Made by a program: the position numbers and the translations under genes. 52,733 nucleotides of DNA from a bacterium (lineage in GTDB: Bacteria; Patescibacteriota; Minisyncoccia; Phycocordibacterales; UBA1006). Positions 4,457-21,493 of the stretch are shown one piece after another (within the stretch, counting starts at the first letter, position 1; each line of letters starts with the position of its first letter). Under the pieces are notes generated by a model. The model made no database searches. It was not told the DNA's origin and worked only from the letters and a program-made list of their open reading frames with translations. Where the stretch lies: positions 1 through 52,733 of the forward strand of contig JBAWXN010000002.1 in the NCBI GenBank assembly GCA_037144045.1, given 5' to 3'.

Positions 4457-4528
4457 TCCCCTGTAGCTCAGCGGTAGAGCAAACGACTGTTAATCGTTTG
4501 GTCGCAGGTTCGATCCCTGCCGGGGGAG
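4457..4528 (+). tRNA. tRNA-Asn (GTT)
   Basis: Full cloverleaf: acceptor TCCCCTG/CGGGGGA, D-arm GCTC/GAGC, anticodon loop CTGTTAA, T-loop TTCGATC. No encoded CCA. Extended -10 TGcTATAGT at 4438-4446. Confidence 0.97.
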
Positions 4529-6211
4529 CACAACAAAAGAAAGCATCTCGAAAGAGGTGTTTTCTTTTGCATTTACAAGCTGAAAGTTAGGTTCTAACGT
4601 AGCAATTTTCTTGAAGAACCCATCACTGCATTCTTTGATGCTTATAAGTGATTTAGGCAAGGAAACACAAAGGTTTTTGTCCTTTATGTTTAGGTTCGAA
4701 CCTAAAGCCACAACAATCGACTTCTTCTGCTCCGCGGTCCCGTTTCGGAACTTTTCAAGAGCATTCTCGGCAAATTGAGCATAGTTTTCGGCGACCTCAA
4801 ACCAATTGATTAGTCGATCTTGATGACTGGTTCGATTGTTCTTAATGATCGTGAGTTCTTCTTCAATTTCAGATTTATACTTCTTGAATTGCTCAGCATC
4901 AATTTCATTGTCTGCTCGCATGCGTGTGTATCGGTCCAATTTATTTACAAGGTCAATTTCCTTACGGTTCTGTGCGTGGACCAGCTCTTTCTGATTTCCA
5001 ATTTCTTCCTTATGGATTTCTTGGAAGCCTGCCTTAAGCCAGGAATGAAACTCTTCCGGAATGGTAATAGAAGATAGATATTGTTCCACTTGAGCACTGA
5101 GTTGTTTCTCGGTCATATTTCCTTTTTGGCTGCATCCTTCTCGCCGTCCCGTGCAATGGTAATAAGTAATATCAATAAACGAAGGTTGTTTCATTTCTGA
5201 AATGTCAGTGCCACATTTGGGGCAATCAGTACGAGTAATCATTGAAAACTTATATTTGCAATTCTTGCAGATGCATTGCTTCTTACGCTCAGCGGTAATC
5301 TTACATCCGCAATCTCCACAGGTAAGAGGCCCCCGAAAAGGATAAGGAATATCTTCTTGGTACTGTCTCGGTCGCCCCTTCTTCCCAAACATTTTCTGTG
5401 CCTTATCGAATTCTTCAGGAGTGATCATTGCTTCGTGTTTTCCAAGGACCTCACTCTTTCCTCCGACTCCATCATTCCAGTCAAAGTAGCCGCAATAAAA
5501 TTTATTCTTAAAGAATCCTGCCACCGTAGATTCGGCGTATTTTACACCTTGCTGATTGCGCAGCCCGTATTCATCCGCTAATTTCTTATGTATAGACTTA
5601 ATACTATAGGTACCAGAAAGAAGCATGTCCCATCCCTTACGAATAATAGCAAAGCGTTTATTGTCCTTTAGAATTTCTTTATCTCCTGCTTCAAATGTAT
5701 CTTTCGGATTGTGCATGTAGCCAGCCGGAAGCTGAGCGCAGGGGTACCAACCACGCATAGCCTTCTGGCGCATTCCACGTTTTGCATCCTCACTAAGATC
5801 CTTAACGAATTGATTAGCCATCCCCATTTCTACTGCCATCATGATTACATTGTCAGTAGGATAATAATTTCCAGAATAGGTCTTAATATGTTTAATAATG
5901 CCTTGTTGTAGAAGCCAGCTAATTTGTCCACCATCAATAGGGTTGCGCGCAAGTCGATTAAGCTTCCAGCAGATAATACCGCTTGCTTCACCATTATGCA
6001 TACGTTGAAGCATTTCATTGAACTTTTCGCGCCCTGGCTTTTTAGCTGACTTGGATTCAGTAATTTCAGCCACTACCTCTAGTCCATACTGTTCGGCCAC
6101 TTTTCTCATCTCAAGAAGCTGATCCTCAATGGAAGCAACTTGTTTGTCTTCTGATTCAGAAGAGCGTCGACAATAAATAAAATATTTATTGTCATTGGTT
6201 AAAGTTTTCAT
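4490..6211 (-). CDS. Large serine recombinase (resolvase + recombinase + Zn-ribbon + coiled coil)
   Basis: N-terminal YCRRSSE catalytic Ser motif, WKLNRLARN, CGDCG Zn ribbon, coiled coil. The last codons (PRQGSNLRPND) are the antisense of tRNA-Asn. Confidence 0.95.
   Translation of the reverse strand: MKTLTNDNKYFIYCRRSSESEDKQVASIEDQLLEMRKVAEQYGLEVVAEITESKSAKKPGREKFNEMLQRMHNGEASGIICWKLNRLARNPIDGGQISWLLQQGIIKHIKTYSGNYYPTDNVIMMAVEMGMANQFVKDLSEDAKRGMRQKAMRGWYPCAQLPAGYMHNPKDTFEAGDKEILKDNKRFAIIRKGWDMLLSGTYSIKSIHKKLADEYGLRNQQGVKYAESTVAGFFKNKFYCGYFDWNDGVGGKSEVLGKHEAMITPEEFDKAQKMFGKKGRPRQYQEDIPYPFRGPLTCGDCGCKITAERKKQCICKNCKYKFSMITRTDCPKCGTDISEMKQPSFIDITYYHCTGRREGCSQKGNMTEKQLSAQVEQYLSSITIPEEFHSWLKAGFQEIHKEEIGNQKELVHAQNRKEIDLVNKLDRYTRMRADNEIDAEQFKKYKSEIEEELTIIKNNRTSHQDRLINWFEVAENYAQFAENALEKFRNGTAEQKKSIVVALGSNLNIKDKNLCVSLPKSLISIKECSDGFFKKIATLEPNFQLVNAKENTSFEMLSFVVLPRQGSNLRPND
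4509..4598. other. tRNA/element junction (attL-like): tRNA T-arm + GGAGC core + recombinase 3' arm
   Basis: The LSR ORF crosses into the tRNA at GAGC 4526-4529. The right arm has a hairpin (4534-4569, which can act as the tRNA terminator) and GTTCTAAC at 4591-4598, the same layout as sites at 19.4-21.0 kb. Confidence 0.7.
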
Positions 6212-6351: not shown

Positions 6352-7845
6352 TTAAAAAGGAATTTGGCCTGGATCATCATAGAATGATTCACTGTCGGAC
6401 TCGTCGTTAGTGACAGTAGTACTATACTTATGATTGATCAAGCGAATAGTTCGATGCGTACTCCTTTCGCGTTCAATAGTAATTCCTATTTTTCCTAGAG
6501 GCACCTCGAGCTGATTGATCTTTTTACTCAGAATCACTTCGTTTTTTGGTAGCTCTAATCTGCTTATCGATCTCTCATTCCACAAGGATTCACTTAGGAC
6601 TTGATAGAGTTCACGCGGGGTACCTTCCCAAGTTTTCTTATCTGACATAAAGTCTCGTATAGTTACGGCTATGTCACTATTATTAATAGCTTCATCGGTC
6701 TGACTTTCAATGTTGCGATTGTAAGCATTTAAAAATTGCTCTTGTGAGTAACCAATAGATTTGGCAATTGCGCATCCCCAGATGGCAAAATCTGCCATCC
6801 TGGGACTACTTCCTAAGACAATTTGATCTTTTATCTTCATACTATTTGATACTGCTGTAAATATTGCACCTAAGATAAGGGCTTTTTCTTCTTGGAAACC
6901 CTTAAACAATTTTTCCTCACTAATTCTTTGAGAGTCATCCATTCGTTTAAGCGGAAAAAGTATTGAGCGCTCCAAAAGGTCCGGCTGTGTTCCGTCAAGA
7001 TTGATACCATTAATACCAATACATCGCTTAAAATTATAGATAACATCTCCGTCATTGGTATATAGTTCACGCTTAGAAACTCCAATACCTGTGATTGCTT
7101 TACATAAACAATCAGAAAGTTTTTGATCAACATACGAGACATTATCAAAAAAACTAAACCAATTATGTTCTAATTGTTGGATAAGCTCGTTATTGTTCTC
7201 AGGGAATGTAACAATCCCAAGCTGTGACGGGTCTACTAATTCACGTGTAATTCTTGACACGCTTGATTTTGCTGAACCCTGAGGACCGTATACATATGCC
7301 AAAGGATGAGGGATACCCGGAATAAAACAGGATATAATCCAGACTAAAAATAGAATCTTTTGATCTTCATCGGTAATATTTAAGAAATCAAGAATTCTTC
7401 TCACGTCGCCTCCCAATTGAGGATCCACCTGTGATTTATGATGGGTATATCTTTTAAATAAAATCGGCTCATGGTTTATTTTTGTAACCTCCCAACCATC
7501 CTTACTTATTGATATTGTGCTCCATGTTGAATTGGTTAGATCGTACAATATTTTTTCTTTATACCAAGCAACCCTGTTATGAAGTTGATGTTCAGGTCCA
7601 TCAAATAAGGCTTTCGCTTTTAGTAATTCAATAATACTTTTGATGCTTTCTCTGCCTGGATTTTTTTCAAGGGTCTGATAAAGAACACTTCTACACCATA
7701 AAGCTGTCTTAATTCCATCACAAGGATATATTTTCAAAACACCCTCATCATCAATCCGAATCCAAGGATTTTGTTTCTCGTCATGAAATAACTCAATGTT
7801 CTGGTTTAAGATTATTTCAAGATTTTCATCTACGTTGTTAATCAT
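6352..7845 (-). CDS. Mobile-element P-loop ATPase (primase/helicase-like replication protein)
   Basis: Walker A GPQGSAKS, Walker B-like FFDNV, DLLERS, PRMADF; typical of phage/ICE replication ATPases. Confidence 0.7.
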   Translation of the reverse strand: MINNVDENLEIILNQNIELFHDEKQNPWIRIDDEGVLKIYPCDGIKTALWCRSVLYQTLEKNPGRESIKSIIELLKAKALFDGPEHQLHNRVAWYKEKILYDLTNSTWSTISISKDGWEVTKINHEPILFKRYTHHKSQVDPQLGGDVRRILDFLNITDEDQKILFLVWIISCFIPGIPHPLAYVYGPQGSAKSSVSRITRELVDPSQLGIVTFPENNNELIQQLEHNWFSFFDNVSYVDQKLSDCLCKAITGIGVSKRELYTNDGDVIYNFKRCIGINGINLDGTQPDLLERSILFPLKRMDDSQRISEEKLFKGFQEEKALILGAIFTAVSNSMKIKDQIVLGSSPRMADFAIWGCAIAKSIGYSQEQFLNAYNRNIESQTDEAINNSDIAVTIRDFMSDKKTWEGTPRELYQVLSESLWNERSISRLELPKNEVILSKKINQLEVPLGKIGITIERERSTHRTIRLINHKYSTTVTNDESDSESFYDDPGQIPF

Positions 7846-7972
7846 ATATTGATTTAATGAGATTCATCATCCAGAATGTGAGCTCATATGCATCCTCTTG
7901 AGAAATAACAACTCCATATTTTTTGTTGTATATCTCAATGAGACTATCGAGCTGTTTCTGAGAGATCTTCAT
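7838..7972 (-). CDS. Small (44 aa) element protein, not in the ORF track
   Basis: MKISQKQLDSLIEIYNKKYGVVISQEDAYELTFWMMNLIKSIYD; its stop overlaps the start of the ATPase (ATGATTAA), suggesting translational coupling. Confidence 0.65.
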   Translation of the reverse strand: MKISQKQLDSLIEIYNKKYGVVISQEDAYELTFWMMNLIKSIYD

Positions 7973-8087
7973 TTTTTGATTTATTTATTAATAATAATTT
8001 GTAAAGAAAAAAACGCCCTGTGGCGCTCGTTCCTACGAAAGCTATTTTATTTATTTTATATCTTAATGAATATCATAATGATGGTCA

Positions 8088-8834
8088 TTAATTTTTTACC
8101 TCTATTAGATCATACAAATCAACATTTCTTTTATCGTCTCTATCTTTGATAGAATCTATATCTGCAACACCCCTTATTAGGGATAGGAGTTGTTTCCTTG
8201 CTCCTGTGTGTTGATATTCCCCGCCCATTCTTTCAATTACCCGTTCCTTCTTACAAGTAAGGTCTTTACCTCCTTCAAAAAAACATTCTAATAACTTCCT
8301 GGGCGCACCAGATATCTTTTGCGTACTTTTTCCATAGGAATTGGAAAGGATTCCAGATTTTGGATCGAAATAAAGATTTTTGAGTTTAGGTTTACCAGAA
8401 GAGATATTTCCCGAATTCTTCTTCTCTAATAGTTTTATAAGAAGTGTTTTTAATTCACAATCCTCTAATCCTTGAGAAGGAAGATTATTACTGTAATATT
8501 CTTGGCGCATACTCTGTACTTTACCCAAAGCCTTCTTGATACAATTATTGGCCGCATTCACTTCTTGGATTTCTTCGGGAGTTATTTTTTTATTGAACAT
8601 TAAATCCCTAGGTACTTCAATATCGTCAATCGAAAGAACACTTGAACCAATCGGACTAGCAATTAGTTTATTTAAAATATCTAGTTCTTTCCAATAGAGA
8701 AAACTCAGTACCTTATCATCGTCTACAGGCTCAGTAAAGTGAGCATCAATTATTTTTCGTAGATTATAGACAGATTGGGAAAGTGCTCTACGGTATTCTT
8801 TTATTTGGTCTGATGTATGCTGTTTTGTCCTCAT
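8088..8834 (-). CDS. Hypothetical protein, possible C-terminal winged-helix DNA-binding domain
   Basis: 248-aa ORF co-oriented with the ATPase/LSR; C-terminal half resembles an OmpR-type wHTH (weak). Confidence 0.55.
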   Translation of the reverse strand: MRTKQHTSDQIKEYRRALSQSVYNLRKIIDAHFTEPVDDDKVLSFLYWKELDILNKLIASPIGSSVLSIDDIEVPRDLMFNKKITPEEIQEVNAANNCIKKALGKVQSMRQEYYSNNLPSQGLEDCELKTLLIKLLEKKNSGNISSGKPKLKNLYFDPKSGILSNSYGKSTQKISGAPRKLLECFFEGGKDLTCKKERVIERMGGEYQHTGARKQLLSLIRGVADIDSIKDRDDKRNVDLYDLIEVKN

Positions 8835-8862
8835 ATTTGTATAGTAACAAACTTTCTAATAA

Positions 8863-8892
8863 TTGACATATATTATTTATGTGTGTTATAAT
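8863..8892 (+). promoter_or_regulatory. Sigma70 promoter for the TerS-like gene
   Basis: TTGACA (8863-8868), 18 nt, TATAAT (8887-8892) with an extended TG. Confidence 0.75.
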
Positions 8893-8932
8893 GTATACAT
8901 TACCCTACTTTTCCTATGATGCTACGTAACCT

Positions 8933-9238
8933 ATGAAATCTAAACCCTCAAGTAAGCAAAGACAATACGCATACAACCTTCTCAACTCAAATCAGACTAA
9001 ACAACAATCAGCCCTCATGGCTGGATATTCAGAGTCTATGGCTCGTGTTCCTGCTCAAATTGAGCAATCTAAAGGATTCCATCTCGCAATGGCTATTATT
9101 GCTGGCTATACCGAAAATGTAGCAATGCAAATACTTCACGAGCTCCAAGCAAGGGATATTTCCAAGGAGGATACAAAGAATCTCTTTTATGGAATTGATG
9201 TTTTATCTAAGGCTTGGGAGAGGTTTATGTCAAAATAA
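8933..9238 (+). CDS. Terminase small subunit-like HTH protein
   Basis: N-terminal KQRQYA...KQQSALMAGYSES..A resembles the TerS HTH pattern. Confidence 0.5.
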   Translation: MKSKPSSKQRQYAYNLLNSNQTKQQSALMAGYSESMARVPAQIEQSKGFHLAMAIIAGYTENVAMQILHELQARDISKEDTKNLFYGIDVLSKAWERFMSK

Positions 9239-9312
9239 CGCTTTATTTTATAACTATTTTTTGCTATAGTTTGTGCACAACTTAATCAGTAGCCTAAACC
9301 TTAGAAAAATTC

Positions 9313-9441
9313 TGAGGCATGGTGAAAAAACCCAGTAAAGATTAAAAAACCCATCATATGGGGCTATCTTTACTGGTCGTATCTGGAAACGGATACGGAG
9401 GGCGAAAGCTCTCACCTATGTGGTGGGCTTTTTGCGTCTCA
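9313..9441 (+). ncRNA. Candidate structured RNA (multi-hairpin, two GAAA tetraloops)
   Basis: Stems CCAGTAAAGAT/ATCTTTACTGG, CGTATCTG-GAAA-CGGATACG and GAGGGC-GAAA-GCTCTC, in an intergenic region. Confidence 0.45.
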
Positions 9442-9471
9442 ATTATCTAAACTAACCAAGTCAAATCTTTT

Positions 9472-10218
9472 ATGAGTACAATAGGATGGATAGCTTTGTT
9501 TGCTATATTGATAGCACTTAATATTTATTTACAGGACCGTAATTCGAAGCAGCCAGTGAAAACAATCACCGATGTTGAAGAAGCTATAAAAGAATACCTT
9601 GGTTTTGCAAAGGAAAACTCAAATTCTAATCAGTTACGTGAAAAAGCAACTACCCTTGAAAAACGCCTAGGCTTATGTAAGCAACTTATTACTATACAAT
9701 CGTTACATGAGCAAAATCCTATGCTGCTAGTAGCTTTAGGCATTGATCGTTATCGAACACTGGGAGAAAATACAGAATTTAAAGCACCCAATTGGAATTA
9801 CTGGAATACGGATATTCTTAAAGAAAAAGATATTATTCTTATCTATGAAAATATAATAAAAGCCGGGGATGTTTTGCTTTCAAGGATAAATAATGAAGAG
9901 ATTAAACCTAGTTACATGCTTTTGTTTAGTAAAGACTCTATAGCATTAAGTCGAATCATTAAATATAGTAGTGATGACCTATTTGGTGATACTAAGAAAG
10001 TATTTAAAAAAGGATTAAGTGGTGAATACGAGGATTTATTACGGTTTTCAATAGAACAAGATTCTTATAAAATTGAAACTTTCCATCCAGGAGAATGGAC
10101 AATTGAACTTGTTGACTGCTTTAATCTTTTTAGTAAGAACTTTAACACATGGAACAATAAGATGGAAAAAATTAACAACTGGGTAGATATACAAAAATTT
10201 TCTCCAGATAAAAAATAG
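9472..10218 (+). CDS. Hypothetical protein with N-terminal TM anchor
   Basis: 248-aa ORF; no family recognised. Confidence 0.7.
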   Translation: MSTIGWIALFAILIALNIYLQDRNSKQPVKTITDVEEAIKEYLGFAKENSNSNQLREKATTLEKRLGLCKQLITIQSLHEQNPMLLVALGIDRYRTLGENTEFKAPNWNYWNTDILKEKDIILIYENIIKAGDVLLSRINNEEIKPSYMLLFSKDSIALSRIIKYSSDDLFGDTKKVFKKGLSGEYEDLLRFSIEQDSYKIETFHPGEWTIELVDCFNLFSKNFNTWNNKMEKINNWVDIQKFSPDKK

Positions 10219-10305
10219 GCACCCTGGGTATACCCTTTTCAATAAGGGGCAGGGTCATTGTAGTAAAAAGGGTCCCATTGTTTCAATTAGGATACAGTAA
10301 AATAA

Positions 10306-10659
10306 AAACACAAAAAACAAAAGATTCCCCATTCAGGGAGAGAATATGGTAAATATGATTGTTGGAATAGTTGGATACAGAAAGTCAATTTTAAAATCCT
10401 TCCACGTTCTAACCTTCGCACTACTTGGTCACAAACCTTTCAAAGGAAGTTCTTTGAACAGGGCTATATTGAAGGAGACCCACTAGACTATAACCCTCCC
10501 CAAAAGACATCTTCGAGCGAAATTATAAATAAGGTTGTTAGGTTTGCCTCGGTTGGAATGATTGATGGAATGGTCGTGTTTATTAAAACTTATCTTCAGG
10601 GTCATTCGAAAGCGACTGGTGTTTCGTTTGACCTAGGAAGAACTTTTGATTCCCTATGA
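10306..10659 (+). pseudogene. Start-less open frame (probable frameshifted gene)
   Basis: Open frame of 117 codons (KIPHSGREYGKYDCWNSWIQKV...FDSL*) with no ATG until about 10558. Its stop overlaps the ATG of 10656. An A-rich stretch at about 10299-10322 is the candidate frameshift site. Confidence 0.35.
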
Positions 10660-11045
10660 TTAAATTAAGAGCATTAACTGAAAAGGTACGAAATTATTTC
10701 AAAGACCCTTTATTCTTGAGTAAATGGGATATGTATTCGCACTACGGAAAAGTCGAAAGGTCTAAGTTGAAAATGATAGGAATACCTACTCATTTTTATA
10801 TAAATTGGAACCCTTACTCTACGTCAATACATCTTCTCAAGGAAGACTTTCTGGCAAATATCTACCCCTTCACTCATATTGCGAAATCTTCTGATTTTAA
10901 AGTATCTCTTCGTAGTCCTGATAGAAATACTGAAAAAAATATCGCAGATGCCTTATCAGGGAGCTCTTATCCTGAGCGGCTAGAAAATGCTTTAGGTAGC
11001 TTTATAAGAAAGGTAACATTACTTCGCTTGAAATTGACCATGTAA
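10656..11045 (+). CDS. Hypothetical protein
   Basis: 129-aa ORF. Confidence 0.5.
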   Translation: MIKLRALTEKVRNYFKDPLFLSKWDMYSHYGKVERSKLKMIGIPTHFYINWNPYSTSIHLLKEDFLANIYPFTHIAKSSDFKVSLRSPDRNTEKNIADALSGSSYPERLENALGSFIRKVTLLRLKLTM

Positions 11046-11113
11046 GTAGAAAAGGACTGATTTCCTTTGGTAAAAATTACCTGCAGTTTTTACATTGGGG
11101 TATTGCTAAGAAG

Positions 11114-11617
11114 ATGAATAAAAAAGTTCAGATAATTCAGATTCCAAAAGTAAATACTTTTAAGATTGGTTGGGGCGAAACAGGAAGACCTTTAAAAGAA
11201 AAACAACTAAAACGCATAGTTAGACTTGATAAAAACGCAGTGATACCAGAATTCGTATTAAAAGCACAGGAGAATGGAAAGGAGCTTGATTTTGATAGCG
11301 CTTTATATTCCGATACCAAAAATAAAGAAATGGCACGACTCACAAAGAATCTAGGTTGGAGTATTCGGACTGGTTTATGGAACAAAATGAACGACTACTA
11401 TCGCTTAAAGAGAATGTTGAAGTTTAGAGAGGTGCAAATTATTGCTCGAGACCAAATAGTAAAGGCGTTAAATCAATTTTTCGAGAAAAATCTCAACAAT
11501 GCGATAGTTCTTGAAACAAACGCAACCCTAGAAAAAGTATCTGATATTCGGTCGGAACTTGATTCTGGTAAACTCTCTGTTCAAGAGGTTGCCTCTTTGC
11601 TGGATAAAATGGATTAG
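11114..11617 (+). CDS. Hypothetical protein
   Basis: 167-aa ORF. Confidence 0.55.
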   Translation: MNKKVQIIQIPKVNTFKIGWGETGRPLKEKQLKRIVRLDKNAVIPEFVLKAQENGKELDFDSALYSDTKNKEMARLTKNLGWSIRTGLWNKMNDYYRLKRMLKFREVQIIARDQIVKALNQFFEKNLNNAIVLETNATLEKVSDIRSELDSGKLSVQEVASLLDKMD

Positions 11618-11650
11618 TTCTCTGATATAGAAATGTTATACTGTCTTAAC

Positions 11651-12202
11651 ATGACATCAATCACGATTCCTAACCCTTCCCGAAAACGAGCACTCCTTAT
11701 TATCGATGTTCAGACTGGTTTTACAAATGATCGCAGTGCGTGGATTATCCCAAATATTGTTCGACTTATCACAGATGGTACGTATACATCTTTTGTCTGT
11801 GCAAAATTCCATGCAGACCAGGGGTCCCAATGGGATAAGCAGTCCGGATGGACATTCGAACTAACCCCGACGGTTCCTGAAATAAAAGACATTCTGGATT
11901 TTGGAAAGACAATATTTATCACCAAAACAGCACGGTCTATTTTCATCGAACAACCGGGACTTGTCCAAAATCTTCGTGATCAAGGAATCGAAGAGGTGCA
12001 TATTGTCGGCTATGATATCAATGATTGTGTCCTCACCACAGCAAATGATGCATTTGATTATGGGTTTTATACTTATGTCATCGAGGAAGCCTCGGAATCG
12101 AGTCAAAGCAAAGAGCTTTGCGACGCAGCCCTGCTTATCTTGCGAGAAAACGAAATGACCAACCATTCGGAACTGATTTCAGAGAAAAAAGTGCTAGAAT
12201 AA
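11651..12202 (+). CDS. Isochorismatase-family cysteine hydrolase
   Basis: LLIIDVQ.GF, TK...S.F and INDCVLTTA motifs. ATG 11651 lies 8 nt after TGtTATACT. Confidence 0.9.
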   Translation: MTSITIPNPSRKRALLIIDVQTGFTNDRSAWIIPNIVRLITDGTYTSFVCAKFHADQGSQWDKQSGWTFELTPTVPEIKDILDFGKTIFITKTARSIFIEQPGLVQNLRDQGIEEVHIVGYDINDCVLTTANDAFDYGFYTYVIEEASESSQSKELCDAALLILRENEMTNHSELISEKKVLE

Positions 12203-12208
12203 TCCCAT

Positions 12209-13429
12209 ATGAAAGAACATCTTATCAAGCTTTGGAACTCGAATGATATCCCTATTGGTGTTCGTGTCCTGACATTTGCTACCTCTATACGCTGGATTGG
12301 CTGGGGTGTTGCTGAAAGCCTTATCCCAGTATTTCTATTTACGTTCGGACACTCTTATGCAAATGCGGGTATTCTGAAATCTTTTTATGATATTGCATTC
12401 ATCCTGGCCATTCCTTTGATTGGAGTACTGGCCGACCGCATGCGGGGAACGACTATTATTTTGATCGGTCTAAGCTTTTACATATTTGTTGGAACTGGAT
12501 ATTATCTGGCAGGACTTACGGGGCTTGTAATATTCATCATCATTGCAAGATTCATGAACGGATTAGGGTATGCATTTGACTCGGTCGGACGCGAAACATA
12601 TTTCAGACGGCACACCCCGAAAGAAAAGCTTGCGACCGTGTTCGGATATTTCGATTCAGTAGGGATTTTCTGGTGGATTGTTGCAGCTTTGTTTGGAATT
12701 CTCTTGGTAAAGTTTTTCTCAATCCCACTACTTTTGTTCTTGATTACTCCCACGGTTTTGATCGCAATGTTCATTATTTGGAGATTCAGGAAAAAAGAAA
12801 AACAAGAGGTGTTTTCTGACGATCAAAAAAGAGCTCGTTTTCGAGATATTCTTCGTGACTTCAAGGCTTGGGACTGGAGACTTAAATTGCTTGCCTCATT
12901 CAATTTCTTCATATCGTTTTCCGTTTCGAGTGTGTACTTTTTCCTGCCGATCGAAATCTATACCCAAGGTGGGGGATATACGCCGGTCATTGTTATGGGG
13001 GTTATCATGTCGCTCCCTGCGCTCCTCGGTTGGGGACTTGGGAACTTTTTCGACCGAAAAGGAATTAGAGTTTTTGGATACGGATTACTCTGCCTCGCGA
13101 TCCTTCTAGCACTTCTTGGGTTCATTACTGGGTATATTTGGCAGATTGCTATTGCGTTCGGGATCGGCATAATAACGGAACTTCTGTGGGTTGGTAGTCA
13201 GGAACTTATGACGTTATATACAAAGCCTGACCACTTTGGTCGAGTGGACGGCATCTCTCGCAGTATCGACAATGCTGGCGATCTTATCGGTCCACTCTTG
13301 GCTGGAGTAGTCATCGATATTTGGGGGCCTGATGTCACGTATTTCGGTATGGCATTGTTAGTAATGGCAATGACAGCGGTATTTCTTGTGGGGAGTCGAC
13401 ATATGAAACGTAAGGCAATAAACATATGA
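12209..13429 (+). CDS. MFS transporter
   Basis: About 12 TM segments; GVLADRMRG motif A. Confidence 0.9.
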   Translation: MKEHLIKLWNSNDIPIGVRVLTFATSIRWIGWGVAESLIPVFLFTFGHSYANAGILKSFYDIAFILAIPLIGVLADRMRGTTIILIGLSFYIFVGTGYYLAGLTGLVIFIIIARFMNGLGYAFDSVGRETYFRRHTPKEKLATVFGYFDSVGIFWWIVAALFGILLVKFFSIPLLLFLITPTVLIAMFIIWRFRKKEKQEVFSDDQKRARFRDILRDFKAWDWRLKLLASFNFFISFSVSSVYFFLPIEIYTQGGGYTPVIVMGVIMSLPALLGWGLGNFFDRKGIRVFGYGLLCLAILLALLGFITGYIWQIAIAFGIGIITELLWVGSQELMTLYTKPDHFGRVDGISRSIDNAGDLIGPLLAGVVIDIWGPDVTYFGMALLVMAMTAVFLVGSRHMKRKAINI

Positions 13430-13908
13430 ATAATAATCCCTCATCGTTAACTGTTAAAATAATAATCTCAACAACTCCCATCGAAGAGATCATTGAGCTG
13501 TCATATCTTTCGGGTCCGTCTGACAACAAACATTATCAGAAGATCATGGCTGGGTTTATCGCAAATAGTCTTAGCGCATCTCCAGATTTAGATCTGGGTA
13601 TTGTATATGGTTTGTACGAAGGAGAAAACCTTATTGCCTCCGCTCGAATTAAACAAGATGAATATACATCAACTGCTGTTTCGATTGAATATGTTGCTGT
13701 AAAACCTGAATATCGAGGGAAAGGATTGGGCGCAACTTTTATGAAAGGTTTGTTTAAAGAAATAAAAGAAAGATGGGGCAAGAAAATTGTCATGCTTGCG
13801 ACAGGCGAATCGAGGCCTTTTTACGATAAAATAGGCATGTCATTACTTGGGGAAATGACAAACAAGGATGAGGGTTCTCGATTTTATATGTATGAGTGGC
13901 TGGACTAG
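13426..13908 (+). CDS. GNAT family acetyltransferase
   Basis: VAVKPEYRGKGLG acetyl-CoA motif; FYDKIGM. Confidence 0.9.
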   Translation: MNNNPSSLTVKIIISTTPIEEIIELSYLSGPSDNKHYQKIMAGFIANSLSASPDLDLGIVYGLYEGENLIASARIKQDEYTSTAVSIEYVAVKPEYRGKGLGATFMKGLFKEIKERWGKKIVMLATGESRPFYDKIGMSLLGEMTNKDEGSRFYMYEWLD

Positions 13909-13921
13909 TATTCAAAAATAT

Positions 13922-14419
13922 ATGAATCTATCAAATGTTTCAATTCAAAAAACTTCAAAGAGTTTCGATTTCTGGCAGTATGTCTCTATCGTCATCCACG
14001 GACGAGAATGGTCATGGTTGATGTGGATTTTTATCATGACAACAATCGGGCATGGAAAATGCAATCTCTTCGTTGTTCGTGATCAAGACACGATTATCGG
14101 GGGATTTTTTGTCGCGGATTTTCCCGTTGCAAAATACAAGCCGTATAATATTTTCAACCACGAAGCGAAATTGAAAATAGCAGAGCTACGTAGAAACGGA
14201 TATCTCGGTTTCTGTTGTTTTATCATTTCCCCAGAATACCGTAATTCAGGCCTCGGTTCATTTGTATGGGAATTATTCTTTGAGAATCATGCAGTCAAGG
14301 TATTTTTCACCGCTTCTCAAAAAGCAGTTCCATTTTACTTACGGCACGGAGCGAAAGTTTTCTATTCAAGCCGACATACCATCTATACCTATGAAACTAC
14401 AAACAAAAACACCGTTTGA
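13922..14419 (+). CDS. GNAT family acetyltransferase
   Basis: ISPEYRNSGLG and AVPFYLRHG motifs; start refined from 13868. Confidence 0.8.
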   Translation: MNLSNVSIQKTSKSFDFWQYVSIVIHGREWSWLMWIFIMTTIGHGKCNLFVVRDQDTIIGGFFVADFPVAKYKPYNIFNHEAKLKIAELRRNGYLGFCCFIISPEYRNSGLGSFVWELFFENHAVKVFFTASQKAVPFYLRHGAKVFYSSRHTIYTYETTNKNTV

Positions 14420-16660: not shown

Positions 16661-16730
16661 AAGCTTATTCTAACACTAGAGCCAGGTAAGACCATGAAGG
16701 AAGATGGTTAGATCAGCAACTGGTAATACC

Positions 16731-16759
16731 TTGACAAAACGCCCATTTGTTGCTATACT
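16731..16759 (+). promoter_or_regulatory. Sigma70 promoter of the DGR target gene
   Basis: TTGACA (16731-16736), 17 nt, TATACT (16754-16759) with an extended TG. Confidence 0.8.
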
Positions 16760-16826
16760 ACCCCTAAGCAAGTATTCTTGCCGACTGCTCCGACAGATTT
16801 CGGAAAACCTTCAAAATATCATACGC

Positions 16827-17489
16827 ATGGCAAATGTACGTGACATGGGGCTTGGACAATGGAATGAATTTTCTGTTGCACTCCACAAGGCTGGTTTCGA
16901 TACCGACCTTATCCAAAAGATTATTAACGCCAGAGACAACAAGCTGGCAAAAGCGATGTACACGGCTGTAATAGGTGAAGAACTGGACGAACGCTTCGGA
17001 CCCGCAATTGTGGAATTCGAGCTTACCGTTCCCACCGACTACAATCACGATACGCAGATAGACACTTCCGGTGCAAAAGCCAGAAAGGAGAAAACTACGT
17101 ATTACTACAACGATGACTTGACCAGCAAGAACTTTGCAAAAGCTACGAACAAATTGGTTCCCGGCAAAACCTACAAGGTGAAAATCTTCCCGATACTTTC
17201 AACGGTAACGAGCGAAGATTGCATGGCGTTATTGCGCAAGCAAAAAGCTATACTGGTAGGCGGACAGGGTGCTACATTAGTTTACGACCTTGCAAAAGAC
17301 AAGTTGCCCAAAGGTAAATGGACGGCTTCCTTTGATGAAAAGGACGCATTGTGGAAAGACGCTGACGGGGACCGTAGGGTGCCTTACGTGCACGCGTTCA
17401 CGGACGGTGGCTTCAAGTTCAACCTCGGCAACTTCGGGCTTGTCTGGCATTCTGTCAACTGTGTTCTTTGCTTCTGCGAACTAATTTAA
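16827..17489 (+). CDS. DGR target protein with C-terminal variable region (CLec-like fold expected)
   Basis: Last 120 nt match the TR with adenine-specific mismatches. ATG 16827 preferred because the ORF-track start at 16704 lies upstream of the promoter. Confidence 0.9.
   Translation: MANVRDMGLGQWNEFSVALHKAGFDTDLIQKIINARDNKLAKAMYTAVIGEELDERFGPAIVEFELTVPTDYNHDTQIDTSGAKARKEKTTYYYNDDLTSKNFAKATNKLVPGKTYKVKIFPILSTVTSEDCMALLRKQKAILVGGQGATLVYDLAKDKLPKGKWTASFDEKDALWKDADGDRRVPYVHAFTDGGFKFNLGNFGLVWHSVNCVLCFCELI
17360..17479 (+). repeat. DGR variable repeat (VR)
   Basis: 120-nt ungapped match to 17830-17949 with 11 mismatches, all opposite TR adenines. Confidence 0.97.
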
Positions 17490-17541
17490 GTACTTAGGTA
17501 CTTGGATTCTTAATGTCATTGTGTCCTTAGATACTTTGTCC

Positions 17542-17572
17542 GTGGCTTCGCGAATGCGAAGCCACTTTTTTT
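17542..17572 (+). terminator. GC-rich hairpin downstream of VR (DGR homing hairpin and/or terminator)
   Basis: GTGGCTTCGC-GAAT-GCGAAGCCAC followed by T7. A second hairpin AAGTAC-TTAG-GTACTT lies at 17488-17503. Confidence 0.7.
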
Positions 17573-17829
17573 ATACCAAAAATCACTTATACTACATCTC
17601 GGAAAGCGATCAGTGTTCGGCTACGGCTTCATGCGATCAATTTCTCGTCTGGGAATATGCGAGAGGCTCGTCGGGTACGCCTTGCGAGAGAGTGCATCCC
17701 TTCATGAAAAAAATATAAATTAGTCGGTGCAACACATCCGCGGACAATTTGTGTCCCGAGTAAAATACAGAGGGTGGCTGGTGCTGTCTTTGGTGGAATG
17801 GAAGGTGTGTTGTACATTGCTTGCGTGTG

Positions 17830-17949
17830 CGCTGACGGGAACCGTAGGGTGCCTAACGTGAACGCGAACACGGACGGTGACTTCAAGTTCAACCTCGGCA
17901 ACTTCGGGAATGACTGGAATTCTGACAACTGTGTTCTTTGCTTCTGCGA
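17830..17949 (+). repeat. DGR template repeat (TR)
   Basis: Nine AAC/AAT codons in the VR frame; has an A at every position where VR differs. Confidence 0.97.
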
Positions 17950-17961
17950 CTCATGGATTTT

Positions 17962-17987
17962 CTCCCGCTATTTCGTGGGAGTTTTTT
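17962..17987 (+). terminator. Terminator-like hairpin just 3' of TR
   Basis: CTCCCGC/GTGGGAG stem plus T6; overlaps the avd stop codon. Confidence 0.55.
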
Positions 17988-18306
17988 CTTGAAGGTTTTT
18001 CTTCCATCCGCCGAGCATGCGCCCGCATTCGTCGAGTTGTAGTATAATCTTCGCGTAAATCTCGTGGTTGATGACTTTATGCTCCCATCCGAGTTGCAAG
18101 AAGAACTTGAGCAGATCTGATTTGCCGATAGCGTGGGATACGAGCGACAGTTTCTCAAACTTGTCATAAGCAAAGGTTGCCTGAAAGAGTAGTTCGAGGA
18201 GTTCAAGAAAAATATTGTCGATCTTGCAACCAAGAGTGTGCCTATCAACCTTGGAAACGTTTGCTAAATGGTCATGCCAAACCCTGTACGATTCTTTCGC
18301 CTGCAC
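17968..18306 (-). CDS. avd: DGR accessory variability determinant (four-helix bundle); 5' end possibly frameshifted at a G12 tract
   Basis: RHTLGCKID, DLLKFFLQLGWE and ECGRMLGGW Avd motifs. The frame stays open upstream (PPPPIIPLVL) but has no start codon. Confidence 0.85.
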   Translation of the reverse strand: MQAKESYRVWHDHLANVSKVDRHTLGCKIDNIFLELLELLFQATFAYDKFEKLSLVSHAIGKSDLLKFFLQLGWEHKVINHEIYAKIILQLDECGRMLGGWKKNLQEKTPTK

Positions 18307-18325
18307 GAGAACAAGCGGTATGATC

Positions 18326-18337
18326 GGGGGGGGGGGG
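18326..18337 (+). repeat. G12 homopolymer tract between avd and RT
   Basis: Twelve consecutive G. Confidence 0.95.
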
Positions 18338-18362
18338 AGAATTTCGGGTCTTTAACTTTAAT

Positions 18363-19370: not shown

Positions 19371-19405
19371 CGGTAACTTTGTCATGAAGAAATGATGGTG
19401 ATCCT

Positions 19406-19505
19406 CCTCGATAATCAGGGTTCTGATCTGGCGCAGTCGTGCGAGCCAGCAAAAAGACCTTATTTTATATAGGTCTTTTTTGTTACCTTTTGGTGAATTC
19501 GAACC
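19406..19505. repeat. att-like site A
   Basis: CCTCGATAAT starts 37 nt before GAGC (19443), as in site B. Right arm: CAGCAAAAAGACCT hairpin, TTGTTACCTTT, then ATTCGAACC 50 nt after the core. Confidence 0.75.
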
Positions 19506-20081
19506 TTATACTATTCGCCTTACAATTTTTTGAAGTTTAGGTATAATTTCTTCCTTAAACCAAGGGTTCTTCTTTAGCCAGATATTGTTACGTGGTGAAG
19601 GGTGGACTAATGGTAGGTAGTTTGGTAAATATTCTTCAAATGATTTAACTGTTTCAGTGAGGGACTTTTTTCGTTTTGTGCCAAGATAAAGTTCCTGTGA
19701 ATACTGTCCAATTAAAATAGTTAATTCTATGTTTGGCATATTTTCTAAAATAAGTGGATGCCACTTTTCTGCAAAACCTTTTCGTGGTGGCACATCACCT
19801 CGCTCCTTGCTACCAGGAAAATAGAAATCCATTGGAACCAAAGCGACCTTCTTTTCATCATAAAAAATTTCTTTAATCATTCCGAGCCACGCTCTTAAGT
19901 TATCTCCGCTTAAATCATTCCACGGTACATTACTTTCTTGTGCTAAGCGTCCTGGTGCTTGTCCTATGATAAGTATCTTTGCAGACTTGTGAGCTGTGTA
20001 AATAGGTTCCCATCCTTTTTTGTGAAAAGGTTTGTTTTCTTTGTCATTTATAATTTCTCCTTTTATCTGCTTTAGGTTCAT
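19506..20081 (-). CDS. Uracil-DNA glycosylase superfamily protein
   Basis: IIGQAPG and LVHPSPRN UDG motifs; lies exactly between sites A and B. Confidence 0.9.
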   Translation of the reverse strand: MNLKQIKGEIINDKENKPFHKKGWEPIYTAHKSAKILIIGQAPGRLAQESNVPWNDLSGDNLRAWLGMIKEIFYDEKKVALVPMDFYFPGSKERGDVPPRKGFAEKWHPLILENMPNIELTILIGQYSQELYLGTKRKKSLTETVKSFEEYLPNYLPLVHPSPRNNIWLKKNPWFKEEIIPKLQKIVRRIV

Positions 20082-20100
20082 ATGCTAACTATATCATTTT

Positions 20101-20200
20101 CCTCGATAATTACTTGTCGAACATCCTCCCAAGTTCGGAGCAAAATTTTAATCTTATTTTGTAAAGGCAATTTTACATACTTTAAAAGAAGTTCGAACCT
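20101..20200. repeat. att-like site B
   Basis: GTCGAAC-N10-GTTCG-GAGC (core 20138), then GTTCGAACC at 20191. Confidence 0.8.
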
Positions 20201-20216
20201 GTGATATTATTTAGTT

Positions 20217-20927
20217 ATGAAAAAAATAACAGGTATTTTGTTTGTTGTTGGTGCGCTGATAGTAAACATACCGTACGCATTACTTATTAGTAATTTTAAT
20301 TATCCAGATATTTTAAGAGAACCTGCAGGAGTGGTGCTTACTAATTTTGCAGCTGGAGGTAGCAATTTGATCTATACTTGGCTCTTCTTTGCACTCGCAG
20401 GATTACCACTTCTTTTCGCTACAATAATGCTTGGAAAACTATGGAAGAATGCTTCTAGTACTCTGGTGAGCTTAGCTACTACTTTTGGAATAATCGCACT
20501 TGTCGCTCAGTTGATTGGTCTTTTGAGATGGGTCTTCGTTGTTCCAATACTAGCTCAGAATTATGTTGCGAACGGCGCTACAGAAGCGATACAGACAGCT
20601 TCGACCGTAGCATTTCAAACAGTTAACCAATTCGGAGGTGTACTCCTTGGGGAATACGTAGGTCAGCTTTTCAGTATTATTTCTATGTTCTTATTCAGTA
20701 TTATTATTTTACGTAATAAACTTTTGAAGTCGTGGGTTGCCTGGCTTGGTTTTGTGGCATCTCTAATCTATCTACTTGCCGAAACTGAACTATTTCATAC
20801 AGTTATACCTTCATTCCCAGTGGTGGATGTCGCTGGTCTACTTGGGAGTGTATTATGGATCGTTTGGTTAATTTCTATAGGGGTATTATTAATCACTCAG
20901 AAGAATTCTCCAAATCAAGCTCAGTAA
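20217..20927 (+). CDS. DUF4386-like membrane protein
   Basis: FNYPDILREP...GLLRWVFVVP.LA pattern; multi-TM; lies between sites B and C. Confidence 0.75.
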   Translation: MKKITGILFVVGALIVNIPYALLISNFNYPDILREPAGVVLTNFAAGGSNLIYTWLFFALAGLPLLFATIMLGKLWKNASSTLVSLATTFGIIALVAQLIGLLRWVFVVPILAQNYVANGATEAIQTASTVAFQTVNQFGGVLLGEYVGQLFSIISMFLFSIIILRNKLLKSWVAWLGFVASLIYLLAETELFHTVIPSFPVVDVAGLLGSVLWIVWLISIGVLLITQKNSPNQAQ

Positions 20928-21021
20928 TTATAGCTTTCCGAACATTGTCCCAGGTGCGGAGCCAGCAAAATCACCTTATAAAACAGGGTGATTTTTTGTT
21001 ACCTTTCTAGGAGTTCGAACC
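20924..21021. repeat. att-like site C
   Basis: TCCGAAC-N10-GTGCG-GAGC (core 20959), CAGCAAAATCACC hairpin, TTGTTACCTTT, then GTTCGAACC at 21013. Right arm closely similar to site A. Confidence 0.8.
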
Positions 21022-21058
21022 TGGCTAATTTATAGTATTAGTTCTATACTTTTATTAT

Positions 21059-21406
21059 ATGTTTATTATTACAGTATCACATTTAATCAATGTTCTAGTT
21101 GCCGGCGTAATAGCGTTGCTTTTAATGAGTAATGAGCGTCATATGAAAAAAGTATTTGGTGATGTAACTCCTGCAAGACAGATACTTTCATCTCTTTATA
21201 TGGCTATAGCAGTAGCTTCTTTCGTTGCGCTTGCTCTACCACAGTACGGTATTGCTATTGCTCTCGTACTTTTTCCTATTCAGATACTTTACAAGCTTTC
21301 TACACTGGTCACGGTGTCTTCAAAAAGCAATCCTGTAATCTGGTGTAATTTAGCGATTTCAATTGTGCACGCAATATCTCTTTACACTATTTACTTTCTT
21401 CAATAA
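21059..21406 (+). CDS. Small membrane protein
   Basis: 115-aa hydrophobic ORF; its stop codon lies inside site D. Confidence 0.75.
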   Translation: MFIITVSHLINVLVAGVIALLLMSNERHMKKVFGDVTPARQILSSLYMAIAVASFVALALPQYGIAIALVLFPIQILYKLSTLVTVSSKSNPVIWCNLAISIVHAISLYTIYFLQ

Positions 21407-21440
21407 TCGCAATTCGAACATCACCCCACGTTCGGAGCCA
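21400..21440. repeat. att-like site D (left arm + core)
   Basis: TTCGAAC-N10-GTTCG-GAGC (core 21435). Confidence 0.8.
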
Positions 21441-21452
21441 GTTAGTAATTCT

Positions 21453-21493
21453 CCAATAACAGCTATCCGAAATCCGTCCAAGGTTCGGAGCAT
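21453..21493. repeat. att-like site E (left arm + core)
   Basis: TCCGAAA-N10-GTTCG-GAGC (core 21488); its GGAG sits at Shine-Dalgarno distance from ATG 21494. Confidence 0.8.

Follow-up and report, generated by a model that had tools for sequence, protein, structure and literature searches.

What does a large serine recombinase recognise when its own gene ends inside a tRNA gene? In the window analysed here (the whole stretch of DNA, 52,733 nucleotides), an integrase gene adjoins a tRNA-Asn gene, reads over a short core into the tRNA and takes its final 12 codons (LPRQGSNLRPND, then the stop) from the antisense strand of the tRNA. It is proposed that the T-loop box of this tRNA is the outer, zinc-ribbon-zone recognition motif of an attB half-site. 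On the wider reading, which is probably correct, the tRNA-Asn T-loop serves a large serine recombinase as its outer attB recognition box, and attP carries a mimic of that box 5 bp further out. The features of the junction are the following.

4457..4529, plus strand: tRNA-Asn(GTT), candidate attB-type (B) arm of the junction (ARAGORN; Rfam RF00005 gives 4457-4528, 69.8 bits)
4508..4515, plus strand: T-loop box GTTCGATC (tRNA nt 53-60), read from the sequence
4525..4529, plus strand: GGAGC, common to the tRNA end and arms B-E, read from the sequence
4490..6211, minus strand: large serine recombinase gene, 573 aa (Pfam Resolvase and Recombinase; translation)

At the end of the tRNA, G4528 is the discriminator base and C4529 the encoded C74. 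Read on the integrase-sense strand, the T-loop box is TCGAAC and occupies +15..+20 from the complement of the discriminator. The limits of attL and attR identity, in the window and in six related loci (L046, L081, L087, L108, L116 and L121), confine the crossover to G4526-G4528, a range of 3 nt, the identity between attP and attB being short (3-9 nt); the crossover hence falls inside GGAGC, where the initial annotation had placed it. Within this range, A4527-G4528 (tRNA nt 72-73) is the favoured candidate for the crossover dinucleotide, because its competitor would, for the Tyr and Gly classes, be GC, which is palindromic.

By its domains and its coiled-coil, the protein encoded at 4490..6211 is a large serine recombinase (serine integrase). 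The resolvase-type N-terminal catalytic domain (PF00239, E 9e-19) contains the Arg-x-Ser nucleophile motif, and residues R15 and S17 are conserved at a level of at least 90% among 38 homologues. It is followed by the Recombinase domain (DBD1; PF07508) and a Cys4 zinc-ribbon (DBD2); PF13408 is present in homologues, and cysteines Cys298, 301, 315, 318, 330, 333, 353 and 360 are invariant. Residues 232-325 align to the A118 integrase (4KIS/6DNW; phmmer). In the AF2 model (pLDDT 83.6), helices 386-433 and 439-490 make up a long coiled-coil that interrupts the zinc-ribbon domain; an additional folded module towards the C-terminus covers approximately residues 493-539, and the whole tail region has pLDDT <50. 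The best Foldseek matches to this model are the SPbeta, Bxb1, phiC31 and LI integrases, of which the first three, as integrase-DNA structures, match over their full length with E values of 1e-19 to 1e-12. A phage origin was considered and rejected, the relatives in IMG/VR being only 25-28% identical.

For the Listeria innocua (LI) integrase, the zinc-ribbon motif covers positions 16-24 of the attP half-site but 11-19 of the attB half-site (Rutherford et al. 2013, PMC3783163); the same paper cites a published experiment that converted a Bxb1 attP into an attB. A shift of DBD2 has been seen directly by cryo-EM for the SPbeta integrase (PMC11722253), where it amounts to 4 bp; a shift of 5 bp is therefore not universal. 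If the crossover lies at tRNA nt 72-73, the box described here would span positions 15-20 of the attB half-site and 20-25 of the attP half-site, within ~1 bp of the LI zones. The present system further resembles the Listeria innocua/A118 model in its domain order (catalytic, recombinase, and zinc-ribbon with inserted coiled-coil), in an outer motif that, on the tRNA-side arm, is 5 bp nearer the centre in attB and in an inner segment common to both sites. It differs in that the motif is the universal tRNA T-loop box and not a phage-specific word, that one arm per site has the box while the other is a hairpin, and that attP lies within the coding sequence of the integrase itself; sequence identity to the LI integrase is only ~14-18%.

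In the mechanism proposed, attP would lie inside the last ~25 codons of the integrase gene. Beyond the crossover, the element arm would mimic the tRNA twice: first through a copy of 3-9 nt of the acceptor end, and then through a copy of the T-loop box, encoded as NTT-CGA/AGA-ACN (Val/Ile/Leu-Arg-Thr) and separated from the crossover by exactly 5 bp more than the box of the tRNA. If the enzyme behaves like the Listeria/A118, Bxb1, phiC31 and SPbeta integrases, this box would be read and bound by the zinc-ribbon domain (DBD2), which on attP would sit farther from the crossover than on attB by half a helical turn. The coiled-coil would then point in a different direction on each site, and synapsis would probably be limited to attP x attB pairs. 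A crossover near tRNA nt 72-73 (A4527-G4528) would connect the tRNA with the body of the integrase gene, and the tail arm, now detached, would end up at the opposite end of the insert.

Candidate tail arms of this kind, attP-type by their spacing, lie at five positions in the window.

19404..19446, plus strand: arm F, GTTC at 19420-19423, 19 nt before GAGC; the minus strand encodes LARLRQIRTLIIEED
20099..20141, plus strand: arm B, GTCGAAC at 20116-20122; the minus strand encodes LRTWEDVRQVIIEENDIVSI followed by a stop
20920..20962, plus strand: arm C, TCCGAAC at 20937-20943; a hairpin module comes after it
21396..21438, plus strand: arm D, TTCGAAC at 21413-21419
21449..21491, plus strand: arm E, TCCGAAA at 21466-21472; the outermost arm, abutting a UPF0114 gene

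Arms B-E (20099-21491) are 43 nt long and end in CGGAGC. As had been claimed from the sequence at the outset, TTCGATC (4509-4515) stands 10 nt from GAGC (4526-4529) in the tRNA, and a (T/G)(T/C)CGAA(C/A) 7-mer stands 15 nt before GAGC in each of B, C, D and E. Arm F had been taken for a degenerate arm at 14 nt, which is wrong: when aligned on the family-invariant GTTC, its spacing is 19 nt against 14 nt in the tRNA (GTTC 4508-4511), which again gives +5. Of all matches to the family tail in the window, its peptide LARLRQIRTLIIEED is the best, and arm F is a family-typical arm, in register and not degenerate, followed by a hairpin module at 19447-19508. Arms B-E continue the integrase ORF in frame and represent alternative 3' ends of the gene; in arm B, the minus-strand stop overlaps the ATG of a UDG-family gene (20081..19506). 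These four arms depart from the family box (TCGACA, TCGGAA, TCGAAT and TCGGAT), their differences resemble coding-sequence divergence, and they may be relics.

Taken alone, the window is weak evidence for the offset. The 24-nt arm pattern has four exact occurrences against 0.49 expected. With shuffled arms, a match as good at exactly 15 nt had P = 0.002 for D, the best arm at the fixed offset, 0.02 for B and C, and 0.08 for E, values that are not independent of one another because arms B-E are homologous; when any spacing from 0 to 30 was allowed, P ranged from 0.06 to 0.96. A search for further copies of the tRNA-Asn end at <=2 mismatches found none.

It is the comparative data that make the +5 observation strong, weak though it is from the window alone. 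The family comparison comprised 80 homologous loci, distributed over many phyla (Patescibacteria, Bacteroidota, Elusimicrobiota and Verrucomicrobiota among them), with 70 complete ORFs. Nearly half of these ORFs (34/70) enter the 3' end of a tRNA, with nine tRNA identities represented (Asn, His, Gln, Trp, Tyr, Lys, Ile, Gly and Glu), and one family ORF (L083) runs into or abuts a tmRNA gene. The remaining homologues have the Val/Ile/Leu-Arg-Thr tail, encoded NTT-CGA/AGA-ACN. Counted from the discriminator base, the box lies at +15 in the tRNAs and at +20 in the element arms; it is invariant at +15..+20 in the 34 attL junctions across all nine identities. Among 199 fused/intact pairs with a common anchor peptide, 190 showed the +5 offset; 17 different anchor peptides were involved. 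When all spacings were scanned in the 34 fused loci, the sole peak on the sense strand was at self+5 and the antisense strand gave none; this peak yields real arms in the same six loci that helped to bound the crossover. Furthermore, the spacing of the pattern GTTC[GT]A-N{k}-GAGC was surveyed in 134 kb of tRNA-Asn loci from 12 relatives: k=12 gave 14 tRNA-type matches and k=17 gave eight arm matches (five distinct sequences from three genomes), while every other value of k gave 0 or 1 match.

One intact-tail homologue, with the box at +20, sits on a circular element of 10,519 bp that was assembled three times independently, and because of this location the +20 form is the free attP. Together with the fused/intact pairs, the self+5 peak and the k=12/k=17 survey, the circular form upholds the proposal of the initial annotation that the 5-bp offset fits attB versus attP geometry. 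The family tests and the circular element likewise support its assignment of the tRNA arm as attB-type and the cassette arms as attP-type, which generalises far beyond the window. Its label P' for the cassette arm does not stand, however: if the tRNA is drawn at the left, P is the cassette arm and P' the side of the integrase gene. On that P' side, three further features lie within the window.

4534..4569, plus strand: P' arm, a perfect 16-bp hairpin with a GAAA loop, then a T-rich run (folding, dG -21.5 kcal/mol, z -6.1)
4591..4596, minus strand: second T-loop-like box TAGAAC, at -68 from the discriminator complement, in Leu-Glu-Pro codons TTA GAA CCT
4694..4699, minus strand: third T-loop-like box TCGAAC, at -171, in Gly-Ser-Asn-Leu codons and within the palindrome TTAGGTTCGAACCTAA

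The hairpin sits within the integrase coding sequence and is probably a replacement terminator for the tRNA; analogous P' arm hairpins with compensatory changes occur in six family loci (L104, L110, L113, L115, L116 and L121). The TCGA at 4548-4551, seemingly symmetric to the element arm, was considered as an inverted copy of the box on this arm and rejected, as it forms the apex of the 16-bp hairpin. A family scan for GTTC[GT]A near -20 to -25, where an inverted box on the P'/B' arm would lie, found none. Only one arm per site carries the box, and the sites are thus far more asymmetric than classical serine-integrase sites.

Deeper in the gene, a box stands at exactly -68 in ~40/48 family genes, with codons that are nearly always TTC/TTA-GAA-CC, and at -171 in most family genes. 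At -171, Ser-Asn is written TCG-AAC in 55/57 cases, TCG making up 14% of the Ser codons in those genes. The -68 and -171 boxes are unexplained by a simple half-site model.

One alternative to zinc-ribbon reading accepts the box as a real DNA signal and assigns it another reader: a small C-terminal domain after the coiled-coil, or a partner protein, perhaps within a res-like accessory architecture that also includes the boxes at -68 and -171. Such a reader would suit the invariance and codon-level conservation of those two boxes, the extra module at ~493-539 in the AF2 model, the left arms that lack the box, and the modules after arms F, B and C, which hold the box at -57, that is, 11 bp (one helical turn) closer. 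It is nonetheless unlikely, since positions 15-20 and 20-25 coincide with the LI zinc-ribbon zones and, for several arms of other genomes, the 130 nt on the other side contain no box.

It is also improbable that the element-arm box is kept only for the C-terminal peptide of the integrase (L..VRT.II), with both its resemblance to the T-loop and its 5-bp offset as by-products of coding. This explanation draws on the conservation of the tail peptide across phyla, on arms B-E, which differ largely at third codon positions, and on the AGA in arm F, by which TCGA itself is not required. Codon choice speaks against it: the Arg codon of the tail motif is CGA (11) or AGA (5), hence restricted to NGA, in 16/16 intact tails, whereas the two codons together account for 46% of Arg codons in the same genes. 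Moreover, the same DNA word recurs in two further reading frames of the gene, where codon bias is extreme, cassette arms without the integrase (in genome G013) retain the box and stop directly after it, the whole tail region is modelled at pLDDT <50, and coding gives no reason for an offset of 5 over 2 or 8. Across 27 arms, G+22, A+23 and A+24 are conserved at 93-100%. The box is under constraint at the DNA level; its conservation could partly act at the protein level, since it also encodes a conserved peptide.

It is highly improbable that the arms are direct repeats of the 3' end of the tRNA that have decayed and bear a chance 5-bp insertion and a functionless offset, comparable to tyrosine-integrase repeats or the 20-bp ssrA repeats of Dehalococcoides islands: although elements that target tRNA or tmRNA genes usually bear a copy of the 3' end of their target, and 3-9 nt of the acceptor end are indeed repeated in the arms, there is no tRNA similarity between that copy and the box, and a random indel would differ among lineages, whereas Asn, Tyr, Trp, Gly and other classes each show an identical +5 independently.

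A more tentative extension of the T-loop reading, and one that is rather unlikely, concerns sites in which attP or attB identity is set by one arm only. On the tRNA side, that arm would confer identity through its box at +20 or +15, while the other arm would be a terminator-like hairpin in element and chromosome alike. The tRNA junction would then still be attB after insertion, each detached tail arm would be attP, and the -68 and -171 boxes would be accessory sites. If this were true, one enzyme could add single-gene cassettes in a row behind any tRNA, cut them out and rearrange them, in an integron-like manner, which would account for the arrays of arms found here (five), in G013 (six) and at L046, L081 and L116.

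Tyrosine integrases that target tRNA genes also enter the 3' part of the gene, leave the tRNA intact and build tandem accretions; in these systems a long identical core rebuilds the tRNA end, with no shifted-motif logic. The present system shares the 3'-tRNA integration, intact tRNA and tandem accretions, and differs in its catalytic family. In integrons, IntI is a tyrosine recombinase that acts on folded single-stranded attC. Rows of single-gene cassettes, each ending in a recombination site and lying beside a fixed entry site, are common to both, whereas the sites here are double-stranded, serine-type and derived from the end of the recombinase's own gene. Neither an IntI tyrosine recombinase nor attC hairpins were found in the window, where the sole recombinase is serine-type and the arms are coding-derived.

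The closest published system is that of the Dehalococcoides ssrA islands, the likeness to DsiB being one of description. There, attL is in every case overlapped by the recombinase ORF (DsiB), which extends into the target RNA gene (McMurdie et al. 2011, PMC3146451); the islands stand in tandem rows, some without an integrase, and their target is a tRNA-like 3' end (PMC3146451). Correspondingly, the recombinase ORF in the window overlaps attL and ends inside its target RNA gene, and L083 abuts a tmRNA gene. The differences are that 3-9 nt are shared here, with the crossover at the acceptor end, as against a 20-bp repeat for DsiB, and that no shifted T-loop mimic is described for Dehalococcoides (PMC3146451). 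A 20-bp exact direct repeat of the target 3' end was sought at the far boundary, and GGAGC (5 nt) was all that was found. From the DsiB-type six-gene module (with DsiA small serine recombinase, RecF-like, ParB and Mom among its members), no second resolvase domain, ParB or Mom was detected by Pfam on the three integrase-adjacent genes and PHROGs on ORFs 6352 to 14419. In the open-access literature, no paper was found that links serine recombinases to T-loop recognition or describes this system.

The 5-bp attP/attB rule was derived from a handful of phage integrases, and the present family would present it as a conserved natural design across many phyla, in which the shifted motif is the most conserved word of tRNAs. 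A universal T-loop box would explain how this integrase lineage moves among at least nine tRNA identities and tmRNA, as a change of target would need only a new inner, acceptor-copying part. The family thus points to a class of integrase whose outer specificity is already met at the tRNA genes of any organism, and it offers a ready comparative data set for testing the domain-shift model. It also suggests that the 3' end of an integrase gene can double as its own attachment site, with DNA-level constraint visible in three reading frames.

Two minor observations concern the flanks of the arms. Recovery of the native flank (B') from synteny with 12 relatives was tried and abandoned, gene order around tRNA-Asn not being conserved; the only match is the 7-nt CAGTTAG to the right of arm D, which is the native tRNA-Asn flank in two same-genus genomes. 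The modules after arms F, B and C were also considered as plain remnants of the integrase gene. This is partly right, in that an RFE(F/L)-like box is kept, but two of them have hairpins with compensatory changes.

The source genome is 764 kb and 96% complete, a typical size among Patescibacteria, and the window is one whole contig of it. An integrase gene adjoins the tRNA-Asn gene on its right and reads into it from the opposite strand. The features at this junction are as follows.

4457–4529 (ARAGORN) or 4457–4528 (Rfam), plus strand: tRNA-Asn(GTT)
4509–4515, plus strand: T-loop, TTCGATC
4526–4529, plus strand: GAGC
6211–4490, minus strand: integrase ORF, 573 aa, with Resolvase and Recombinase Pfam domains

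Because the two tRNA predictions end at 4529 and 4528, G4528 is the discriminator and C4529 an encoded C74. The ORF reads GTG CTC CCC CGG... through GGAGC and stops 40 nt inside tRNA-Asn, giving the translated C-terminus ...SFVV|LPRQGSNLRPND* (bar, tRNA junction). The protein is a genuine large serine recombinase: it has the Arg-x-Ser motif and eight invariant cysteines, and residues 232–325 align to the A118 integrase. Its AlphaFold2 model (pLDDT 83.6) contains catalytic, recombinase and zinc-ribbon domains, a long coiled-coil at residues 386–490 and a small extra C-terminal module; in structure it comes closest to the full-length SPbeta, Bxb1, phiC31 and Listeria innocua prophage (LI) integrases.

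More than 2,700 homologues were found, none over 50% identical across the full length. Their C-termini are of two kinds, either fused, with tRNA read-through (e.g. ...LCAGxDSNLRR), or intact, with a tail of their own (e.g. ...LCAGLxxVRTxII). Among 80 loci sampled from genomes of many phyla, 70 ORFs had a complete 3′ end, and 34 of these ran into an opposite-strand tRNA gene (Asn 11, His 7, Gln 6, Trp 3, Tyr 2, Lys 2, and Ile, Gly and Glu one each). One further ORF, in a Margulisiibacteriota MAG, runs into a tmRNA gene in place of a tRNA (locus L083, 11552–11931), which connects the family with islands that target ssrA. In a genome of the same family as the window (G024), too, a homologue sits next to tRNA-Asn. 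Another locus (L120, 431–11073) has an intact-tail integrase and, ~9 kb downstream of it, a second serine recombinase, 23% identical, that abuts tRNA-Asn, an arrangement consistent with elements stacked at one tRNA. Separately, in two same-genus genomes the match to tRNA-Asn falls into two pieces (nt 1–34 and 35–73) ~590 nt apart (G002:C3:27209–27866 and G007:C4:12229–12894), which points to an insertion or an intron within the anticodon loop.

The initial annotation proposed that a T-loop-like word, the box (TCGAAC on the integrase-sense strand), lies 5 bp closer to the core in the tRNA than in the cassette arms. The spacings it gave were correct: TTCGATC lies 10 nt from GAGC in tRNA-Asn, and (T/G)(T/C)CGAA(C/A) lies 15 nt ahead of GAGC in arms B–E.

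19404–19446, plus strand: arm F, the fifth arm
20099–20141, plus strand: arm B, 43-nt repeat ending CGGAGC
20920–20962, plus strand: arm C, 43-nt repeat ending CGGAGC
21396–21438, plus strand: arm D, 43-nt repeat ending CGGAGC
21449–21491, plus strand: arm E, 43-nt repeat ending CGGAGC

A 24-nt arm pattern occurs exactly four times, against 0.49 expected. On the minus strand, in the integrase-ORF frame relative to GAGC, arms B–E encode L-R-T-W-E-D-V-R-Q-V-I-I-E-E and variants; the arms thus represent alternative versions of an integrase gene's 3′ end, which places the attP arm on the far side of the crossover. The stop codon ending arm B overlaps the ATG of a UDG-family gene. Taken by itself, the window's spacing evidence is weak. 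When the arms were shuffled, a match as good at exactly 15 nt arose with P = 0.002 (D), 0.02 (B and C) and 0.08 (E), and with any spacing allowed P was 0.06 or worse; being homologous to one another, arms B–E are not independent tests. Arm F, previously described as degenerate, carries the family box CAGAAC (Ile-Arg-Thr) in register; the off-consensus arms are B–E, which may be relics. Just left of arm F lies a diversity-generating retroelement (16704–19343), with a reverse transcriptase gene (18363–19343, RVT_1) and a 120-nt template/variable repeat pair (17830–17949 and 17360–17479, 91% identical).

Comparison across the family confirmed the 5-bp offset. With the complement of the discriminator (window 4528) as anchor a, the tRNA box TCGAAC occupies a+15 to a+20 in all attL junctions, and T[CA]GAAC occupies a+20 to a+25 in intact tails and detached arms. 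When fused and intact ORFs were paired by a common four-residue anchor just before they diverge, the box offset was +5 in 190 of 199 pairs, across 17 different anchor peptides; in the nine exceptions the anchors lay beyond the junction. The 34 fused loci were also scanned for the first 4–5 nt of the tRNA end followed, at any distance, by T[CA]GAAC. The sole peak on the integrase-sense strand was at the tRNA's own spacing +5, with four matches for a 5-nt core and eight for a 4-nt core (most other bins 0–1, maximum 5), and the opposite strand of these loci gave no match at +5. The +5 matches are genuine arms in which the tail peptide carries on, at L046 (Tyr, two arms), L081 (Asn, two), L087 (Asn), L108 (Gly), L116 (Trp, two) and L121 (Asn).

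A scan for GTTC[GT]A-N{k}-GAGC (k 0–40) over 134 kb around tRNA-Asn in 12 relatives and the window gave, on the tRNA strand, 14 matches at k = 12 (tRNA genes and one duplicated tRNA 3′ end), eight at k = 17 and 0 or 1 at every other k. The eight are arms in the relatives' genomes G021 (one), G015 (one) and G013 (an array of six), none of them among the sites of the initial annotation. In another relative (G006), the final 22–24 nt of tRNA-Asn are repeated exactly ~30 nt upstream of the gene (L033, 1500–1521); unlike the arms, this repeat keeps the tRNA spacing. The independent comparative evidence supports the earlier assignment of the tRNA as attB-type and the cassette arm as attP-type. The label P′ for the cassette arm was reversed: when the tRNA is drawn on the left, P is the cassette arm and P′ the integrase-gene side.

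A free form of one such element was recovered. Three sequencing runs each yielded, independently, the contig that carries the intact-tail homologue P0011 (L129, L130 and L131). Every copy is 10,549 bp long and its ends overlap by 30 nt; once trimmed, the copies are perfect rotations of each other. The resulting 10,519-bp circle encodes the integrase, a DnaJ-domain protein, PG_binding_1 and a hydrolase. Its box is at a+20; therefore, +20 marks the site of the free element and +15 the chromosomal site.

The box also recurs upstream, at exactly a−68 and a−171 in ~40 of 48 family genes, with the window's offsets and extreme codon bias shared by loci L044–L123.

4591–4596, minus strand: box at −68 from the discriminator; in the family, Phe/Leu-Glu-Pro codons (TTC/TTA-GAA-CC)
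4694–4699, minus strand: box at −171 from the discriminator, Ser-Asn codons (TCG-AAC)

At a−171, Ser-Asn is written TCG-AAC in 55 of 57 cases, and TCG makes up 14% of Ser codons. The tail-motif Arg is CGA (11) or AGA (5) in all 16 intact tails, two codons that account for 46% of Arg in the same genes. Positions a+22 to a+24 are G, A and A with 93–100% conservation across 27 arms, and the integrase tail is predicted to be disordered (pLDDT <50 from about residue 550). Arms of cassettes lacking the recombinase retain the box and end right behind it. This codon restriction, the arm conservation, the disordered tail, the recombinase-less arms and the recurrence of the word in three different reading frames (tail, a−68 and a−171) speak for selection acting on the DNA word itself.

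Within single loci, attL and the detached arms agree over short stretches only, and the identities intersect at a to a+2, G4526–G4528 in the window (window, L046, L081, L087, L108, L116 and L121). Since the Tyr and Gly classes would have the palindrome GC at (a+1, a+2), (a, a+1) is favoured, and the crossover dinucleotide would be A4527–G4528, tRNA nt 72–73. With this centre, the box falls at half-site positions 15–20 in attB and 20–25 in attP. In the LI integrase structure, the zinc-ribbon motif lies at positions 11–19 in attB and 16–24 in attP (PMC3783163), and cryo-EM of the SPbeta integrase revealed such a shift directly, of 4 bp (PMC11722253). By analogy, the zinc-ribbon domain is proposed to contact the box. 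No report of T-loop reading by serine recombinases was found in the open-access literature. Among published systems, the ssrA islands of Dehalococcoides come closest: the recombinase gene dsiB overlaps attL there, too, and the islands form tandem stacks; however, they carry a 20-bp exact repeat, and a shifted mimic is not described there (PMC3146451).

Unlike in the classical picture, an inverted box on the other arm was not found in the family. In the window, the P′ arm holds a hairpin, directly after tRNA-Asn and within the integrase coding sequence.

4534–4569, plus strand: perfect 16-bp hairpin with GAAA loop, then a T-rich run (dG −21.5, z −6.1)

The element probably supplies this hairpin as a terminator. 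Other family members have P′ hairpins with different stems, the flanks of detached arms are terminator-like hairpins too, and in G013 the hairpin sequence that follows the tRNA also follows five of the six arms. Arrays recur, with five arms in the window, six in G013 and two each at L046, L081 and L116. The missing inverted box, hairpin flanks and recurring arrays suggest, as a tentative and rather unlikely reading, that site identity resides in one arm only; the tRNA junction would then remain attB-like once an element had inserted. The G013 array (L042, 4064–8900) lies downstream of tRNA-Asn; four of its attP-type arms are identical, the first four in order are spaced at ~600 bp, the remaining two lie ~1–2 kb further on, and its cassette row is larger than the window's. 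Inside the window's island lies a LOOT RNA (9291–9413; Rfam RF03000, 95.9 bits), and a same-genus genome has a LOOT-like stretch ~2 kb downstream of tRNA-Asn (L035, 3707–3926; tblastx segments 72–100% identical).
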